Origin: an uncultured Trueperaceae bacterium
GTDB lineage: Bacteria > Deinococcota > Deinococci > Deinococcales > Trueperaceae
Assembly: GCA_963727505.1 (NCBI GenBank)
Contig: CAVSGP010000004.1
Span: 512,001 to 576,000 of the forward strand
Direction: 5' to 3'
DNA length: 64,000 nt
Part shown: piece after piece, positions 5,139 to 53,776 of the stretch
How the letters are laid out: every line of letters starts with the position of its first letter
Numbering within the stretch: the first letter of the stretch is position 1
Made by a program: the position numbers and the translations under genes
Notes under the pieces: model-generated
What the model saw: the letters and a program-made list of their open reading frames with translations, nothing else
The model's database searches: none
What the model was told of the DNA's origin: nothing

Positions 5139-5483
5139 TCAGCGGGCGGCGGGCGGTCGACCGCTGGCGAGCGCCACCAGGCGCTCGTAATCGTCGGGCC
5201 AACTCCGGTCGTCGAGGGCCGCCCGGTTCCTGCGCACGGCGCCGCAGCTCCGACAGCGGTGGACGATGATCCAGCCCTTCTTACCGCTGTGCTCGGCCGC
5301 CACCGGCTCGAGCACGCCGCCACAGTCGCTGGCGCGGTCGCCGGGGTAGACGTCGACGTGGAGCGAATGCAGGCACACGGGGCAGTGGTTGCGGTAGCTG
5401 CCGTTGGCCAGCGGGGGCACCTCGGCCCCGCAGACCGTGCAGGTGAAGCCCTCGTTCGTCCCGCGGCCGATGAAGCGTCGCAC
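5139..5483 (-). CDS. RNHCP domain protein
   Basis: FTCTVCG...YRNHCPVCLHSLHVD...GDRASDCGG...HRCRSCG; probable leaderless GTG after TAGACT. Confidence 0.85.
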   Translation of the reverse strand: MRRFIGRGTNEGFTCTVCGAEVPPLANGSYRNHCPVCLHSLHVDVYPGDRASDCGGVLEPVAAEHSGKKGWIIVHRCRSCGAVRRNRAALDDRSWPDDYERLVALASGRPPAAR

Positions 5484-5619
5484 GTGCCGACAGTCTACCC
5501 GCCAGCCCCGACCTCCGGGGAGTGCGATGGGCGGGCCGAGCCCGCGCGCCGGACATGCGGGCCCCACGCCACCGCCCTACAATGACCGTCGGTACCCTGG
5601 CATCCGGGGGCCGCGATCC

Positions 5620-43653: not shown

Positions 43654-46129
43654 CTACGACGTCTCGGTGCGCCAGCGCTTACGTATACGCCGGATGCGCG
43701 CGTTCGCCAACGGCCGGCGAGGATCGTTCGGGGGTAGGTGCCGCCGCGTTTCCTCCCATAGCTCCAGGTCGTCCCCCTGCTGATTGGCCAGGTCGATCAT
43801 GGCATCGGCGTCGCCCGACGCAAGCACCGCCTGCCGGAGACTCTCCTCGAGGTGCTCGCGCAGCTCGACGACGGTCGGCGCCTCGGACTCCGGCAGGAGG
43901 GGGCCGCGATAGAGCTCCAAGGCCGCTTGCACCTTGCCTTCGTGCAACAACTCGAGCACCTTCACGAAGTCGGCCTCGTACGCCTCGGCGATGTGATACG
44001 GAAGCGGTTCGATCGGGATCACCTTGCGCGCACGCGAGATCGTTGCCTTCAGCGTGCTCTTGTTCGCGCGGTCCCCATAGAGCGCCAACGCGAGTTGTTC
44101 GCCCCGGATCCCCTCACGGTTTGCAGCCAGTACCGCGATCAACTCCGCGAACCGCAGGCTGAGCGTCGTCTCACCGTCATTGCCCCACAACGACCGCTTG
44201 CCCAGGAGCCGAATCTTCAGCTTGGGCTCGTCGTTCCTGAACAGCGCCTTCAACTGCACGACTTCGGGCCCGTCACCCCCGAGGAGTAACCAACCCGAGT
44301 CCCCAAGGTCCTTTAGAAAGCGAGCGTTACGTTCCATGAGGGCGTGGGCTTCGTCGGGGCGCCCCTCACGCAGGAAGTGGCAACCAAGATGGATCAACGC
44401 CTGAGCTGCGTAGGCGCCGAAGGGCTTCGAGATGAATTCGTCTGCAGCCTTCTGAAGGAGCGCTTCACCGTCACTCCTGCCCGTTGCCGCTAGAGCACAG
44501 CCAAGTGCCAGTCTGGCCACTCGTTCGTGAGCCGGGGACACCTCTCGCGACATCTCCATCGCCTCCGCAGCGACCTCGACCGCTCTACGCCGCATCCCGA
44601 GAACACCGTAGATTCGAACGAGATCGTTTGCAACCGTCGGAAGCTGAGATCGTGACGCATTCGCTGCAACCAGTTCGTAATAGTGCTTTGCCTCCTCCAC
44701 GTCACCAGCAACCAACGCGAAGTCGCCAAGCGTAGACAGAATCCCCTCTGTCGTCGGTGTTCCGACAAGAGACTTTCGGAATCTGAACTGTCGCGAGGGC
44801 CTGCTCTGCGCTGGCCACAGCGCCGGTCAGCAAGCGAGTGTATGCGGCGAAGTTGACAAGCGTGAGGCGAAGAAGCTCCTCTCTGAGACCGACCGTGTGA
44901 AACTGCCTCAACGCCCATCCTGCCCAGTGCTGCGCACGGCCATAATCTCCAGCTGACAAGTGAGCCAGCGCCATGTCACCTGCTACAGAAACCACGAGCC
45001 TTGGTCGACCAGCACGCTCGCCGTACTCCATGGCTTCTCTGAGAGCCTCAATTGCCGCAGGAATCTGACCGTCGAGAGTGAGTAGGAAACCGAGTGCCGC
45101 CGCGGTTACTGCATTGGGGCGTGCATGGTAGGCCCGCTCAGCCTCAGCGATGGAGCCCGAACGGACATCGATCGTTGCACGAAGCGCCCTAACATTTGGG
45201 GCCTCATGACGTTCCAGGTAGCGATCGACCAATGGCATTAGTGACCGCCAGCGGTTGACTGTTACCGCGGAACTGAACTGCCAGTAAACGACCTTCTCGT
45301 CACGCAAGAGCCAGCTTGGTAGCCCCGATATCGTCCTCCAAAACCGTTCGAACTGGCCAGTGTCAAAGAGGATGTTGCCCGCCTCTTCGACCATCTCTGG
45401 CACTCTCGTTGGAGCATGCCTTGCCGCCAATTCAAAGGCCTCCACCCACTTGCCATTCCTAATTAGCGCATCTACGCCCACACCCGCGTCCCTGGCCGAG
45501 AGTGCACGCACGGCAAGACCCAACTCCTTGGGATCTTCGGGGTCTTCTGGCCAAGCCAGCCCGAGAGCTCGTTCGACCAGAGCAATTGCCCCTCCGGTCT
45601 TCCAAACTGCTGAAACAATAATGCTCTCTTCACACTCGTCCCCGTAGAGATCAAGAGCCTCTTCCCGTGTCAACGCCAGATCGGAAGTCCCAACGGACTT
45701 CCATCCATCGCGCGATTCAAACTCTCCTGAATCGCAGGCGGCCTGCTGAACTAGGAGGTTCGGCGCCCGAACCACGGATGCAATCTCGCTCGCCCATTGC
45801 GGACACTTGTGTGCTTGCGTCAATACGAACGTAATTGGCTCAAGGGAAGGCAGATACGACTCAAGTACGCTCAGGCCATAGGAACCATCTGCACCGGTGC
45901 CGAACAATGGTGCGCCCAAGCCAAACCTGACCGCCTCCGATAACGCATCACCGACGGCAACATCGTCAGAACAATCGACCGCCTCTAGATCCATCCAGAT
46001 TAGTGGCTGTTCCGGCTGGCGTAGGCTTGCAATGACCCTGTTCAATCCCCAATCTTCGTCTGCCAAGACGGCTACAGGCGAGCCTGGCTCCGAGATCATC
46101 GCGCGGACACGGTCGATCCAAGCGTTCAT
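43654..46129 (-). CDS. Degenerate MalT/STAND-like + TPR + C-terminal winged-HTH regulator, one +1 frameshift near 44775
   Basis: ORFs 44702-46141 and 43654-44715 join if one base of TTT 44774-44776 is removed (QIPKSLVGTPTTEGILSTLGDF); GGAGG before ATG 46129; C-terminal LKIRLLG...LYRGPLLP. Confidence 0.75.
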
Positions 46130-46210
46130 GACCTCCTCCATGCCCAGTCTTCCAAGGAAGCCGAATCCGAATGGCGAAGCTCAACTGCTGCCGACTTATG
46201 CTTGGCTGAC

Positions 46211-47392
46211 ATGGAGCTCTCCTCACGCGCGATTGCTCGTAGAGCAAAGACGTTCCTCCGAAACCACGAACTTGGAATATTCGTGCCGGTCTTGCCTGGC
46301 CTGGAGCAGACGGCACTGGATGAAATCGAGGCGCTTGGCCACAATGCAATAAGAACCACTGGCGGAGTATCGCTCAGAGGCAGTCTCGCAACGGTATACG
46401 CAACCAATCTAATGCATCGGACTGGCAACCGGGTTCTCATACGCATCGACAGCTTCCTTGCTCAGAGCTACCCTATGCTCTACGATCACACAAAGAAACT
46501 CCCTTGGGAGATACTTCTAGGCAACTGCCCATATGTTGAGGTGAAGGTTGCCTTCGCACAGTCGCGGTTGCGAAACAAGAGTCACATCCGAGCTGTTGTC
46601 AGAGACGCCATTATTGACCGTTGCAAGCCTCTCGGGCTAGGTCCAGGGTTTGCGACACCAACCGGGGTCACGATCTTCCTACGACTTCATCAGGATAGGT
46701 GCACCATTAGCCTCGACTCGACTGGCACACATCTGCATAAGCGGGGATACCGAGTTGAGGAAGTCGCTGCACCAATTCGCGAGACGACGGCAGCAGGCAT
46801 CCTTTCGCTGGCAGATGCAAGCTCATACCAGGCAATCGTTGATCCATTTTGCGGATCAGGGACATTCTGCATCGAAGCAGAGATGCTTGTTCGAAGGGTC
46901 GCTCCGGGGCTGAAGCGTTCTTTTGCAATTGAACGCACACCGCTTCATTCGGCAGGGACCTATTCTCAAGTGCGGCGGGAAGTAGCTTCTCGCGAAATGC
47001 GTGCGCTCGGAGTTCGCATTCTGGGTAGCGACATTGAACCAAGAGCCGTGGAGTCCGCACATGCTGGACTTGCCCGTGCCAAGTGTTCTATCGCAAGGTT
47101 CCGCGTGTCAGACGCCTTGAACATCAATTTCCAATCGCTCAAGACGACAAGTGAACGAGGGCTGATTGTCGCCAACTTGCCATATGGGAGAAGACTTTCC
47201 ACACCAGCCGAGGTGCAGACCATGCTTGTCGAGTTCAAGGACCATTTGCTGACTCGCGGTGCGGGATGGGACTTTGCTCTCGTCACCGCTCACCCGGACA
47301 TCTTCGCGAACTCAGCACTCATGGTGAAGAGGCAAGTTGGATTCACCAATGGCGGATTGAGGGTGGTGGCGCTGTTGGGTGCTGTGCCTTAG
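46211..47392 (+). CDS. THUMP-domain SAM-dependent RNA methyltransferase (RlmL/YpsC-like)
   Basis: SLDSTGTHLHKRGYR, APIRET, DPFCGSGT, ANLPYG. Confidence 0.85.
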   Translation: MELSSRAIARRAKTFLRNHELGIFVPVLPGLEQTALDEIEALGHNAIRTTGGVSLRGSLATVYATNLMHRTGNRVLIRIDSFLAQSYPMLYDHTKKLPWEILLGNCPYVEVKVAFAQSRLRNKSHIRAVVRDAIIDRCKPLGLGPGFATPTGVTIFLRLHQDRCTISLDSTGTHLHKRGYRVEEVAAPIRETTAAGILSLADASSYQAIVDPFCGSGTFCIEAEMLVRRVAPGLKRSFAIERTPLHSAGTYSQVRREVASREMRALGVRILGSDIEPRAVESAHAGLARAKCSIARFRVSDALNINFQSLKTTSERGLIVANLPYGRRLSTPAEVQTMLVEFKDHLLTRGAGWDFALVTAHPDIFANSALMVKRQVGFTNGGLRVVALLGAVP

Positions 47393-47460
47393 GTCAGAAG
47401 CCGGTTGACGGCGAGCTCTGGCTCTCTCGCAACCTCCCGTCGAACTGTTGTGAACCGTCG

Positions 47461-48549
47461 TCAAGTGCGGTGATAGACAAGAAGTCCTTCAGCGGCGTTC
47501 GCTTCGTGCGTACCAAAGAAGGACGGGCTTCCAGCGCATTCGATCTTTCCGAGGAAATAGAGTCGCTCAAACTCGGCAACAAGCTCGGGATCAAACTGTG
47601 TCCTTGAGCCGTTGCGGACATATTGCAGTGCCTGCCTGGCGGGCATCGGGCTTCGATATGGGCGTTCACTAGTGAGCGCCTCAAATACGTCAACAATCGC
47701 AATTACGCGCGCAAGACGTGGTATCTCCTCCCCTTTGAAGCCAAGCGGGTACCCTAGGCCATCCCACCGTTCGTGGTGAGCACGAACGACATCTGCGATA
47801 GGACGAAATGTGACGGACACTGATGCAAGTAAGTCTGCCCCATATGAGGGATGCCGGCGAATCTCAGCGAACTCGTCCTCGGTCAGTCGGCCACTCTTCA
47901 GAAGGATATATTCGGGAACCGCTATCTTGCCCAGATCATGCAGTCTCGCTGCCCAATAGAGCACGGTCGTCTCTCTTGACGAAATGCCAAGCGCGTGTCC
48001 CATAACGAGCGCATTGCGTGCAACGCGCTCGCAGTGCCCTTGGGTGTGGTGGTCCCGAACCTCAACAGTGTTTGCAAGACTTGCAAGAACTCGTTGATAT
48101 CCTTCGAATTCTGCAACGCCACTTGCGCTCCTTCCCTGATGGCTTGGAGGCACATGTGCACGGGATACTAGCACTGTGGACATGCCTGCGAAGGTAGCGA
48201 ATACGGCACCCTGAAAAGCCCACCACCCAGTACCAGCGAAGGAATCCTGAATCTTCAATAACTGGTGCACTGCGATGGGAGAAACTAGCGCAATTGCGAC
48301 AACACTCGTGGCAAGGGCGCCAAGGACGCCGCCCCAGGCCGCGCCTACCAAAATCGGAAACAACATCGTCTCCGCCATCGCGGCATAACCAAACTCGATC
48401 CCCACGGCCCTGGTTGCAACCAGGAGGATGGCCGGCGCAAGGACGGCGAATGCTATGGCAGCTGAACGAATGCTTGGAAAGCCCGGCTCACGCGACCTCG
48501 TGCCTTGCAGGCGTAGATGCGAAGCCAATCGCCAGAGCGCGCCCCTCAT
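47461..48549 (-). CDS. Membrane-anchored HD-GYP phosphodiesterase
   Basis: About 4 N-terminal TM helices; LHDLGK, HHERWDGLGYP, DVFEALTSERPYR; ATG 48549 preferred over 48657. Confidence 0.88.
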   Translation of the reverse strand: MRGALWRLASHLRLQGTRSREPGFPSIRSAAIAFAVLAPAILLVATRAVGIEFGYAAMAETMLFPILVGAAWGGVLGALATSVVAIALVSPIAVHQLLKIQDSFAGTGWWAFQGAVFATFAGMSTVLVSRAHVPPSHQGRSASGVAEFEGYQRVLASLANTVEVRDHHTQGHCERVARNALVMGHALGISSRETTVLYWAARLHDLGKIAVPEYILLKSGRLTEDEFAEIRRHPSYGADLLASVSVTFRPIADVVRAHHERWDGLGYPLGFKGEEIPRLARVIAIVDVFEALTSERPYRSPMPARQALQYVRNGSRTQFDPELVAEFERLYFLGKIECAGSPSFFGTHEANAAEGLLVYHRT

Positions 48550-48662
48550 TGACTGTCCACCCCTCTGGGTACGCAAACACAGCGTGGTGAGGCGATAATC
48601 TGAGTTGAGCGCGACAAAGAAAAGCCCACGACATACGCCTCCTCTCGGCGTAGTCATAGACT

Positions 48663-48700
48663 AAAAGGCCGGCGCTTATGGACCACATAAACGCCGGCCT
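48663..48700 (-). terminator. Intrinsic terminator of the peptide transcript
   Basis: Minus strand AGGCCGGCGTTTATG-TGGTC-CATAAGCGCCGGCCT followed by TTT. Confidence 0.7.
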
Positions 48701-48779
48701 AGACAGACAAACTCTCAGTCATCTTGTGTCACTACATTATGACTCCGATGTAGCGATACCTAACGCCAGAAGACCGCCT

Positions 48780-48881
48780 TCAGCGTTGCGAGAAGTGCGA
48801 ACCTGCAGAGACAATTGCGGGCAAGCTGGCGACGAGTGCAAACACGATAGCCATGAAGATGCGCTTCCCTGTATTCTTCAT
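48780..48881 (-). CDS. 33-aa secreted propeptide MKNTGKRIFMAIVFALVASLPAIVSA|GSHFSQR (candidate signalling peptide)
   Basis: Translated by hand (below the ORF-track cutoff); GGGAG 4 nt before ATG; basic n-region, hydrophobic h-region, V-S-A cleavage site; own promoter and terminator. Confidence 0.8.
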   Translation of the reverse strand: MKNTGKRIFMAIVFALVASLPAIVSAGSHFSQR

Positions 48882-49127
48882 ATTTCTCCCATCCTCCCGA
48901 AACCCGTTTGCCGGGTAACGACATCTCTTCATCCACGGTCTCCCATACCGAGGATGCGCTTCTCAGGTCTCCCAACCTTGAAGCATTCTTCTGAGTCCAT
49001 CGGACTCAACGACTTGGAGCTGTTGGGGTTCTGTGGTCCAGACTCTCCCTGACTCAGCTCCCATCTCTTCCAACACCCGGGAAATCCCGGTAACCGATCA
49101 GGCCTCCCAACCAAATCGATTGGCGTT

Positions 49128-49156
49128 AGTGTACACACGACAGTGGCCTTCGTCAA
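49128..49156 (-). promoter_or_regulatory. Sigma70-type promoter for the peptide gene
   Basis: TTGACG (49156-49151), 17-nt spacer, TACACT (49133-49128). Confidence 0.75.
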
Positions 49157-49333
49157 GGGAAATCTAGCACTTCACGTGAACGTGTGTTTGCGTATATATG
49201 CTGTCCCCAACAGTGCGGGGCACTTCTGACTGTGGCGTACTTCGTCTAGTGGCCTCGGGGCCGTGTAATAGAATCTAGTGCACAGGAACTGTGCTGGGTA
49301 GGAGGATACCGGCAAATACCGCCGCAGCGATCA

Positions 49334-51005
49334 ATGACGAAAGAAGTCGAGCAGCTCGTTCGCGAAAAGTATCCTGGCGTCCAACTCGATAGTGACGTCC
49401 AAGCATGGGCGTTCCTTGAGGAGTTCGACAAGGGTGTAGAAGCGTACTCCAAGAAGGTCAACCCTACGCCCGCAGATGATCGATGGGTAGGCGTATGTCT
49501 ATTTCAGTTGGTGCGTGACTTGGAGGCGCTGGAAGCACTCTACCGGGCGTTGAACCGGGGTGAGCCGGCTGCTCGCGTAAACATCGCCCATGTGCTCAGA
49601 TTTGTGGAGCGCGCAGAAGACGCATCCGAAGAACTGAGCAAGGTGAAGCCCGAGCAATTCTCGTCTTCATATGACCAAGTCCTGTATTTCAGGGTGTTGA
49701 GCATACACGAGGAAAACAATGGCAACCTAAGGGAGGCACTTAGGTCTGCCGAGGAAGCGTGGCGCCGAATTCAGGGCATACCGGAGTTTGGGCTTCTTGC
49801 CCCCCCCATCCTTGCCCAGCTTGCGACACTTCACGGCAGAATTGGTAGGTCGCAACGAGCGCTCTGGTTCCTCGAACGGGGACTACAACTTACGTCTGGT
49901 GCCGAGCTTCGAAAGCTCCAGCTAAGGCGCGCTTACGTCCTGATCAGTCTCGGCCGTTACCAGGAAGCACAATCTGAACTCGAAGCCCTGGACTTGGCGC
50001 ACGCTCCAGATATCTTCCAGCCGGAACGTCATTGGCTTCTTGGAGAAGTCGCAAGGTCCAGGGGAAACCTCTCAACGGCAATCCACGAATACGAGCAGGC
50101 AATTGAATTGTCGGTTCAATTGCAGATGGGCTACGAGGAGTTCCTCAGGCCGAATCCCGCTCATGGCCATCCTTGGAAACCAGCGGTGACTTCAGTGCGG
50201 CCGCCGAGCATGCTGCACGTGCCCAGACGCTTATCTCCGACAAGTCTGACAGGCTGGAGTTCCGATTTCGGGAAGTCCTCCTGCTTTACTGGCAAAGCAT
50301 ACACACGAGTGAGCACGCCATCGATAGAACTCGATGCGCTGATTGATGAGCTTGGGGCAATGGGCCTCTTGAAGGAGCAGGGCCACGTCCAACTCCACAA
50401 AGCAGAGATCCTCCGTGTCGCCGGAGGCGCCTTCGAAGTTGAGCTTGATAAGCTTCAGGCACTAAGCGTTACACTTCAGAATCCGGCGTTCCTAGCGCCT
50501 GAATGGTCGCTACTGCATGCGCTTGAGGAAGTTGCCAGGCGAACTCATCCGCGCATTGCCGGTCGAGCGCATAGCGCGCTTCGGATTGCTACGTTGGGCC
50601 AAGAGCTCACTTGAACTAGATTCGAGGCCAGTCAACATCCCACTCCGCAAGGGCGTCGAAGTTCTTGCGTACTTCCTCGAAAACAAGGCCGTCACCCTCA
50701 AACAACTCCTCGCCGAGGTCTTCCCCGACGACAAACCCCGGAGCGCAAAGTCGTACTTCCACCAGTTCCGCCACCAGCTTCGAGAGAATGTGGAGGGGCT
50801 CGAGATCGAATACGACGGAGAGTCCAAGATGTACCGACTCAAGAGCGAGATCGACATCGTTTGGGACGTGTCGGAACTCCGCGCCGGCCGGATCATGGGT
50901 AAGACCGGGCTCTTCTTGCCGAGTTCTGGCAACGACTGGGCGCTCGCCGTCGATCGATCCTTGGATCCCTCCCGGGAGGCGGTCGGAGTCCTCGAGGTGG
51001 TCTGA
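49334..51005 (+). CDS. TPR + C-terminal winged-HTH (SARP/OmpR-like) regulator, four +1 frameshifts
   Basis: TPR-like helices (LISLGRYQEAQSELE, GNLSTAIHEYEQAIEL); C-terminal LRKGVEVLAYFLE...LLAEVFPD...YFHQFRHQLRE in ORF 50517-51005; about 555 aa when repaired. Confidence 0.75.
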
Positions 51006-51049
51006 AACAGCACCGCAGGCGGGCCACCGCCTGTGCTATTCTTGTTTCG

Positions 51050-51114
51050 ACGGAAGAGATGGTGGTTGGGAGATCCCGGAGCGGCGGTTGGGAGCCACAA
51101 GCTCCGGGTTTTTC
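51050..51114 (+). ncRNA. Candidate G-rich sRNA (or 3' UTR element of the TPR gene)
   Basis: TG-c-TATTCT at 51034-51042; CGGAAGAGATGG and two GGTTGGGAG; stem CCCGGAGC/GCTCCGGG followed by TTTTT. Confidence 0.45.
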
Positions 51115-51180
51115 TGTGCCGTTGGGCGTTCGCTTCCAGAACCGCGAGCCGATCCCATGCCGACGGCCCGCCTGTCGGGG

Positions 51181-51214
51181 CTGTAAGAATCCTGTAAGAA
51201 TGCCTGGCTATACT
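51181..51214 (+). promoter_or_regulatory. Promoter with tandem direct repeats upstream of the -10 box
   Basis: CTGTAAGAAT at 51181 and 51192 (11-bp period), TATACT at 51209-51214. Confidence 0.65.
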
Positions 51215-51219
51215 CAAGT

Positions 51220-51307
51220 CGTGGACCTGAGGTAACTCTCCCAGTACCTCTTCCCATCTCTTCCGAACAACGGGCTCCGCGCCTCCCACGCGGAGTCCAA
51301 CTTTTTT
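51220..51307 (+). ncRNA. Candidate C/U-rich sRNA
   Basis: Follows the -10 box; CTCTCCCAGTACCTCTTCCCATCTCTTCCG; hairpin GGGCTCCGCG-CCTCCCA-CGCGGAGTCC then AAC-TTTTTT. Confidence 0.55.
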
Positions 51308-51538
51308 GGGCCCCTGCGATACAGGGGCGCGATGCACCGGGCCGTAGCATTACAGCCAGCATCGTGTGCTGACCCGTGCTCCGCGCGGAATATGGCGGGA
51401 ATATGGCGGTTCGGTACGGGCTGTGCAGCGACCCTCAACGACCGCGCTGTCGTACCGCATTTGCTTGCGGGGGACCCCGAAAGTGTGTTAAAAAGGGTAG
51501 TTGCCAGCTTACCCAAATCCGAGGAGGAAGCCCATTTC

Positions 51539-53776
<2,238 letters not shown>

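Follow-up and report, generated by a model that had tools for sequence, protein, structure and literature searches.

Overall organization of the locus

The window, by which we mean the whole 64,000-nt stretch of DNA that was analysed, encodes on its minus strand a 33-aa peptide, MKNTGKRIFMAIVFALVASLPAIVSAGSHFSQR (48780–48881), with a positively charged N-terminus, a single hydrophobic span and the C-terminal residues SQR. The 240 nt directly upstream (48882–49121, minus strand) are predicted to be the 5′ untranslated region of this hydrophobic peptide gene. On the plus strand, 49334–51005 holds a gene for a 426-aa TPR protein followed by one for a small winged-helix-like protein of 162 aa with a weak match to the NNH6 helical domain; on the minus strand lie genes for a membrane HD-GYP protein (47461–48657) and a second TPR protein (44702–46141). 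About 100 nt of the 162-aa reading frame lie within the end of the TPR gene, so that its true start is probably later than that of the annotated frame.

The leader, the peptide and the gene neighbourhood are conserved across the Trueperaceae. In most of the 47 loci that could be oriented, rpsA, the winged-helix gene and the TPR gene are followed by the divergent peptide gene; read outward from the peptide gene, one side therefore carries the TPR gene, the small winged-helix-like gene and often rpsA, and the opposite side, again in most of the 47, often the HD-GYP gene and then the second TPR gene, whose product is 25–30% identical to its counterparts at distant loci. The region 46000–51200 has a GC content of ~53–60% against 70% for the genome, and is still vertically conserved across genera. 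Eight sequencing runs were listed as containing the locus, none of them an RNA run.

Homologues of the peptide were gathered by scanning public contigs with a peptide-derived pattern, which returned 55 stretches, 39 of them with a 33-aa frame, and loci found by DNA similarity were added to the peptide set; the other 16 stretches, which lacked a 33-aa frame and came from unrelated phyla, were discarded as chance matches. All 39 distinct homologues are exactly 33 aa long and have the form MKNTGKRIF, hydrophobic span, AG-xxxSQR. The constancy of the first nine residues comes partly from the pattern by which the set was gathered; members gathered without it are near-identical at the start (MKNNGKRIF, MKNSGKRIF, MKNAGRRIF and MKNNGRKIF). 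Synonymous changes are seen in the DNA alignment of the peptide gene. The peptide is present in 49 of the 128 genomes of the family, and a profile search of 1.84 billion representative proteins gave just 46 relatives. In each of them the match stops at the C-terminus; there is thus no fused form among them. Pfam and NCBIfam contain no family matching the peptide, and a search of the ESM Atlas with it gave no usable match.

Promoter, extent and motif content of the leader

The putative promoter of the peptide mRNA (49128–49156, minus strand) is composed of a −35 element TTGACG (49151–49156), a 17-nt spacer and a −10 element TACACT (49128–49133), and is the only sigma-70-like site in 48400–51600; relatives keep the bases TTGAC and TAnnnT. 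Transcription is predicted to start near 49120–49122, which is 240 nt before the ATG at 48881 and agrees with the leader length given in an earlier note on this DNA, made from the letters alone. At the other end, an intrinsic terminator (48660–48700, minus strand) is formed by a 15-bp stem (hairpin 48700–48666) followed by TTTTAG.

By DNA search the leader is kept in six of nine genomes of the same genus and in two other genera, and it can be aligned across genera. A model of its 5′ domain matches 25 of the 128 genomes, all of them peptide-positive, and in each of the 25 the one strong match is directly upstream of the peptide reading frame. There are two second matches, both weak, one on the antisense strand of a small RNA gene in genome G052 and the other at a site of the same leader. 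In the 25 matching genomes (128 searched) the 5′ domain thus always accompanies the peptide reading frame, which fits a cis-regulatory leader rather than a free-standing sponge.

The stretch was first singled out for its motifs, and these were found as described. GGGAG occurs seven times on the minus strand, at 48886, 48894, 48940, 48969, 49045, 49058 and 49104 (span 48886–49108), GAAGAGATG is present twice (49062–49070 and 48922–48930), and the two short hairpins AGGT-TGGGAG-ACCT (48965–48978) and CGGT-ATGGGAG-ACCG (48935–48950) can both be read in the sequence. The window as a whole is poorer in GGGAG than its shuffles (152 versus a mean of 234), and at the genome-wide rate of 0.00123 per base per strand ~0.3 copies would be expected per 240 nt. 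In the entire genome (3.26 Mb, 70% GC) the leader is the sole 240-nt segment with seven copies, the runners-up having five. The longer TGGGAG occurs five times within 224 nt of the leader; the genome has just two more clusters of it, with three copies each, both of which were dismissed as Trp-Glu codons in coding sequence. GGAAGAGATGG has four copies in the genome, three of them inside this 2.2 kb, and the fourth, on contig C1, is located within a reading frame and was judged to be chance.

Structure of the leader

The fold proposed for the leader is a row of hairpins on the minus strand. P1/P1a (49092–49121) has UUGGGAGG in the loop; next are P2 (49077–49090) and P3, in which 49055–49061 pairs with 49016–49022; then come P4 (48992–49008), P5 (48958–48984) with the loop UUGGGAGA, P6 (48930–48956) with the loop AUGGGAG, and P7 (48902–48916). 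Since the RNAalifold consensus of the 3′ half shifts with the alignment, counts made helix by helix were relied on instead. Ten helices were taken from the window sequence and scored as nine groups over a 10-sequence alignment (A6), in which standard pairs fill 80.4% of the cells against 70.8% in shuffles (none of 500 as high), a comparison that favours the proposed fold to some extent because the structure was derived from the window sequence, which is itself in the alignment, and the sequences are related. When the partners are slid by one to three columns, 30–59% of the cells are paired. Both sides have changed in 32 of the 54 pairs in the same alignment, so the covariation across homologues that had been suggested as a check is present. 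P1, P1a, P2, P3, P5 and P6 are well supported, with 79–100% pairing; support is weak for P4 (59% paired) and P7 (45% paired), whose low values are probably due to the alignment. The comparative evidence thus agrees with the description of the stretch in the earlier note as a structured leader of the peptide mRNA, and shows it to be long and conserved as well.

The covarying helices P1a, P5 and P6 bear U(U)GGGAG at their tips, as expected if the motif is displayed in loops, and in another clade the loop of P2 bears it as well. UUGGGAGA can alternatively be read as a GGGA tetraloop with a U-G closing pair. Across the aligned leaders the loop is never replaced by another GNRA sequence, and this constancy points to recognition of the loop by its sequence. 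UGGGAG in the leader and CUCCCA in the small RNA described below are both invariant, so the putative loop contacts are co-conserved without covariation.

The C-rich small RNA and its relatives

Between the winged-helix gene and rpsA, on the plus strand, lies the gene of a predicted small RNA of ~86 nt (sRNA1; 51221–51307). Hairpin 1, with CUCUCCCA in its loop, is followed by a single-stranded linker, CCUCUUCCCAUCUCUUCCGAA, and by a terminator hairpin with the loop CCUCCCA and a U tract. The CCTCCCA loop at 51282–51288, to which the leader loops had been said to be complementary, is thus the loop of a terminator-like hairpin. Three C-rich motifs of the CUCCCA type are found in sRNA1, one each in the loop of hairpin 1, the linker and the terminator loop, and CUCCCA is invariant. 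The terminator covaries, with compensatory changes in six pairs. A covariance model, R1, built from 12 copies of the small RNA, scores 102.8 bits at sRNA1 in the window and matches 93 of the 128 family genomes (28 of 36 genera; the count includes G118, which is flagged as unpublished). In an order-wide sample R1 was found in 26 of 36 genomes of the family; of 114 genomes from four other families, two gave a match, each with a borderline E-value.

Upstream of sRNA1 (51183–51214, plus strand) is a promoter with the direct repeat GTAAGA-ATCCT-GTAAGA (51183–51199), a gap of 9 nt and a −10 element TATACT (51209–51214); the repeat has an 11-bp period and is kept upstream of the small RNA at nine loci. 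The C-rich small RNA noted earlier thus appears to be a genuine conserved gene near the leader, with complementary motifs and with a promoter and a terminator of its own.

No Rfam family reaches its gathering score anywhere in the window, RsaE/RoxS, 6C, ar14 and FsrA included. Below threshold, 51229–51335 on the plus strand resembles ar14 (RF02344; 19.3 against a gathering score of 58.8, E 1.3) and FsrA (RF02273; 15.4 against 80, E 7.6); these matches are driven by the CCUCCC loops and the terminator, so membership was rejected and the likeness taken as one of composition and shape. The sRNA1 family is absent from Rfam, and the leader fits no described family. A search of the literature on small RNAs of Truepera and C-rich small RNAs of Deinococcus found no such RNA.

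A box of the form GT(A/C)AG(A/C)-N5-GT(A/C)AG(A/C), with an 11-bp period and ~9–10 nt upstream of the −10 element, also occurs elsewhere in the genome, at C9:353745, C5:222971, C2:24233, C2:40652, C6:42005 and C4:126372. The box precedes both small RNA genes (the second is described below), genes for a CheY-like receiver, a receiver-HD-GYP protein and a GGDEF-EAL protein, and a small reading frame. A Pho regulon was considered and rejected, because the other boxed genes belong to response regulators and c-di-GMP signalling and not to phosphate. The box looks like the mark of a regulon that is linked to c-di-GMP signalling and governed by a winged-helix activator, for which role the adjacent 162-aa winged-helix-like protein would be a candidate.

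A paralogue, sRNA2 (C9:353802–353877, plus strand), scores 39.9 bits with R1 and has the linker CCACCAUCUCCUCUCUUU and the terminator loop CCCCCCA; it also lies downstream of a similar direct-repeat promoter box. Second R1 matches comparable to sRNA2 are found in many family genomes. Tandem pairs of small RNA genes, ~190–210 nt apart, are seen in L026 (a public MAG contig, 5265–5537), G100 and G020, each copy having its own promoter box and terminator.

A further short RNA candidate, here called mini-G, lies on the plus strand between the winged-helix gene and the sRNA1 promoter (51034–51117) and is rich in G. Its extended −10 element TGCTATTCT (51034–51042) belongs to a TGnTAnnnT element conserved at seven loci; these loci were picked out by matching the G-rich sequence itself, after a regular expression for small RNA genes had missed many loci. 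The predicted transcript (~51049–51117, ~68 nt) would carry ACGGAAGAGAUGGUGGUUGGGAG...GGUUGGGAGCC inside a terminator hairpin (terminator-like site 51091–51105), followed by UUUUU. Mini-G is perfectly complementary to sRNA1 over 12 nt and to sRNA2 over 10 nt; the duplex with sRNA2 has an energy of −43.2 kcal/mol, which was equalled by none of 300 shuffles.

Complementarity between sRNA1 and the leader

The proposal that the leader loops are complementary to the CCUCCCA loop was borne out in part and has to be widened: not one but three CUCCCA-type motifs of sRNA1 match UGGGAG, and the predicted pairing extends beyond contacts between loops. The leader also contains a longer box, (U)UCGGAAGAG-N-UGGGAG, at two places, ~190 nt upstream of the ATG and at the ribosome-binding site.

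The upstream copy, site 1 (UGGAAGAGAUGGGAG; 49058–49072, minus strand), the 3′ part of which is also in P3, contains a 13-nt perfect complement, GGAAGAGAUGGGA (49060–49072), to UCCCAUCUCUUCC of the sRNA1 linker. In a 35-nt window the duplex has an energy of −44.1 kcal/mol, which was matched by none of 300 shuffled sRNA cores, and the box GGAAGAG-NN-UGGGAG is found in 25 aligned leaders. Site 2 is the Shine-Dalgarno box UUUCGGGAGGAUGGGAG (48886–48902, minus strand), which resembles site 1; it pairs with the linker over 8 and 7 bp around a one-base bulge at −25.3 to −26.3 kcal/mol (6 of 200 shuffles equal), and in the whole genome 13 of 3383 crudely defined gene starts with a Shine-Dalgarno sequence pair as well as or better than the ribosome-binding site of the peptide. 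A third, weaker match to the linker lies at the second GAAGAGAUG of the leader. Over 30 nt the leader (49042–49071) and the sRNA1 gene (51235–51264) contain a repeat of 77% identity.

The same pairing was followed in relatives. For 12 pairs of small RNA and leader from 11 genomes the duplex at the Shine-Dalgarno box has −21.5 to −27.9 kcal/mol and was equalled by 0 to 12 of 200 shuffles. The upstream box, about 185–202 nt ahead of the start codon, is the strongest site in most of these pairs; two clades have theirs at the Shine-Dalgarno box itself, with 11–12 nt of perfect complementarity. Of eight genomes at a greater distance, pairing is good in five (1, 1, 0, 13 and 7 of 200 shuffles equal), and three have a Shine-Dalgarno region no better than shuffles (55, 133 and 93 of 200). 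Taken together, the Shine-Dalgarno duplex was equalled by at most 13 of 200 shuffles in 17 of the 20 pairs, and not in the other three, so that a conserved complementarity of the leader and its ribosome-binding site to a separate predicted small RNA was found. In two cases both partners have changed: G078 has CUCGGAAG in the leader and CUUCCGAG in the small RNA, where other clades have UUCGGAAG and CUUCCGAA, and G015 has GAUGGGUUGAG and CUCAACCCAUC, respectively. Among members of the genus, site 1 differs at the two positions that separate GGAAGA from UGGGAG, with no change in the small RNA.

Duplex energy by itself does not single out the leader in a genome of 70% GC: in a linker-only scan, two unrelated windows slightly outscored site 1 among 26,419 seeded windows. 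A count of 7-mer seeds over the whole small RNA was abandoned, as it is dominated by GC-rich words of the terminator stem and by a coding-region repeat at C14:19621.

The small RNA is found in 46 of the 49 peptide-positive genomes and in 47 of the 79 genomes with no match to the peptide, counts that include related, non-independent genomes and are not a statistical test. The two genes frequently share a contig, 2–4 kb apart (2.1 kb in the genome of the window). As the small RNA is present in 47 genomes with no peptide match, the leader is not its sole partner.

Proposed role of the leader

We propose, with moderate confidence, that the leader is a multi-site target through which the small RNA controls translation of the peptide. 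The row of hairpins would present U(U)GGGAG in loops to the C-rich motifs of sRNA1, which may dock first through these loop contacts together with the 13-nt upstream box and then cover the Shine-Dalgarno box, thereby setting the amount of peptide. We infer that both RNAs are produced and pair with each other inside the cell, where the outcome would most likely be repression.

Could the leader instead act on the small RNA? The earlier note had suggested an RNA of dual function, peptide mRNA and sponge at once. The first half of this suggestion holds, in that the leader of a peptide mRNA is real and conserved; the sponge half is possible. An abundant leader would soak up sRNA1, and perhaps the paralogue, and relieve other targets, with the peptide a secondary product or side effect. 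That the small RNA has other partners makes such reciprocal titration possible, and its wider spread (93 of 128 genomes, against 49 for the peptide) means that it must have them. The sites of the leader (five UGGGAG and two long boxes) outnumber the three motifs of sRNA1, G-rich sites complementary to the seed of the small RNA, as called for in a sponge, are present, and there is a precedent in RosA of Bacillus subtilis, which acts on RoxS and FsrA (PMC8216469). Against this, the 5′ domain is located directly upstream of the peptide reading frame in 25 of 25 cases and never alone, the strongest conserved complementarity in several clades lies over the ribosome-binding site, as it would in a regulated target, and mini-G, a separate RNA in the same locus, is a better fit; by its predicted pairing mini-G looks the better candidate for a dedicated sponge. 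Titration by the leader is compatible with control of the leader by sRNA1, and would reverse who controls whom. We regard it as rather unlikely.

A self-contained cis-regulator, such as a riboswitch, an RNA thermometer or a set of Shine-Dalgarno-like standby or decoy sites, would leave the likeness to the small RNA as a secondary matter. It would account for a long structured leader with invariant unpaired bases, and GGGAG can pair with CUCCU at the 3′ end of 16S rRNA; the neighbours are c-di-GMP signalling genes, with an HD-GYP gene downstream. Yet no Rfam family, the c-di-GMP riboswitches among them, was found at gathering score: the minus strand of 48400–51700 has no match up to E = 10 (c-di-GMP-I and -II among the models) except to an unrelated lncRNA model. 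A short motif repeated five times is, moreover, unlike known aptamers, and the conserved, linked and complementary small RNA would be left unexplained. This explanation is improbable.

Least probable is that the GGGAG loops bind a global RNA-binding protein, either as a sponge in the manner of CsrB/RsmZ or as a protein-controlled leader. In its favour, the motif is invariant, as it would be for sequence-specific recognition, and the repetition of GGA-containing motifs at hairpin tips and across the Shine-Dalgarno sequence resembles CsrA sites. The loops of P1a, P5 and P6 do contain GGA as part of UGGGAG, with flanking bases other than those of the A(N)GGA-type consensus. Against it, the models of CsrA (PF02599), Hfq and ProQ have no match in this genome, which is 97.4% complete, and the exact complement of the motif occurs three times in a conserved, linked small RNA. 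The CsrA model matched its controls in E. coli, B. subtilis and T. maritima, and the Hfq and ProQ controls matched in model genomes. The titration of a protein put forward in the earlier note is therefore unlikely.

Returning to control of the leader by sRNA1, a wider, self-contained circuit of three or four RNAs in Deinococcota can be imagined around it, in which one or two C-rich small RNAs driven by the direct repeat shared with c-di-GMP signalling genes, mini-G as a dedicated anti-sRNA and the G-rich leader would titrate one another, the TPR and winged-helix pair would feed signals in at the level of transcription, and the peptide would tune the membrane HD-GYP enzyme encoded beside it; this we put forward as a speculation with the odds against it. 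Almost nothing is known of RNA-based regulation in the Trueperaceae, for which the locus offers a family-wide small RNA outside Rfam, its likely main target with a clear pairing scheme, and a possible dedicated sponge.

Comparison with known systems

CsrB/RsmZ RNAs share with the leader repeated GGA-containing motifs in hairpin loops. They differ from it in that here a search for a CsrA gene gave no match, a conserved reading frame is part of the RNA, and the complement of the motif lies in the same locus.

Type I toxin-antitoxin systems with a trans-encoded antitoxin small RNA, such as tisB/IstR-1 and zorO/OrzO, come closer. Like them, the locus would encode a small, hydrophobic peptide behind a long structured 5′ UTR and, nearby, a separately transcribed small RNA that pairs with the leader or the ribosome-binding site; a hydrophobic peptide and an mRNA complementary to the small RNA over its ribosome-binding site, the marks by which such systems are recognized, are both found, as judged from the sequence. 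Unlike them, the gene is single-copy and vertically conserved with a fixed neighbourhood across many genera, and the small RNA is also present without the peptide.

RosA of B. subtilis is an RNA of 229 nt that acts as a sponge for the C-rich small RNAs RoxS and FsrA and has three G-rich regions; one of these may double as the Shine-Dalgarno sequence of a small reading frame, and RosA works without Hfq (PMC8216469). The leader resembles RosA in being an RNA of ~230 nt with several G-rich regions complementary to C-rich regions of a small RNA. There is no relation between the two in sequence or through Rfam; the leader belongs to a conserved gene for a 33-aa membrane peptide, uses one fixed hexamer in hairpin loops, and lies with its putative partner in a single conserved locus.

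For its part, sRNA1 resembles RsaE/RoxS of Firmicutes and 6C of Actinobacteria (PMC6486639) in being short, with C-rich loops and linkers and a terminator at its end, in having G-rich Shine-Dalgarno regions as targets (predicted here), and in having no known chaperone. It differs from them in falling below the Rfam gathering scores, in being almost confined to the Trueperaceae, and in using CUCCCA rather than a run of C, with one motif in the terminator loop.

In kind, then, the locus matches the C-rich small RNA and G-rich target-and-sponge systems of Firmicutes and Actinobacteria (PMC8216469; PMC6486639). If the proposed control is correct, it would carry their logic to a third, distant phylum and connect it with c-di-GMP signalling genes as well as with a small, conserved membrane protein.
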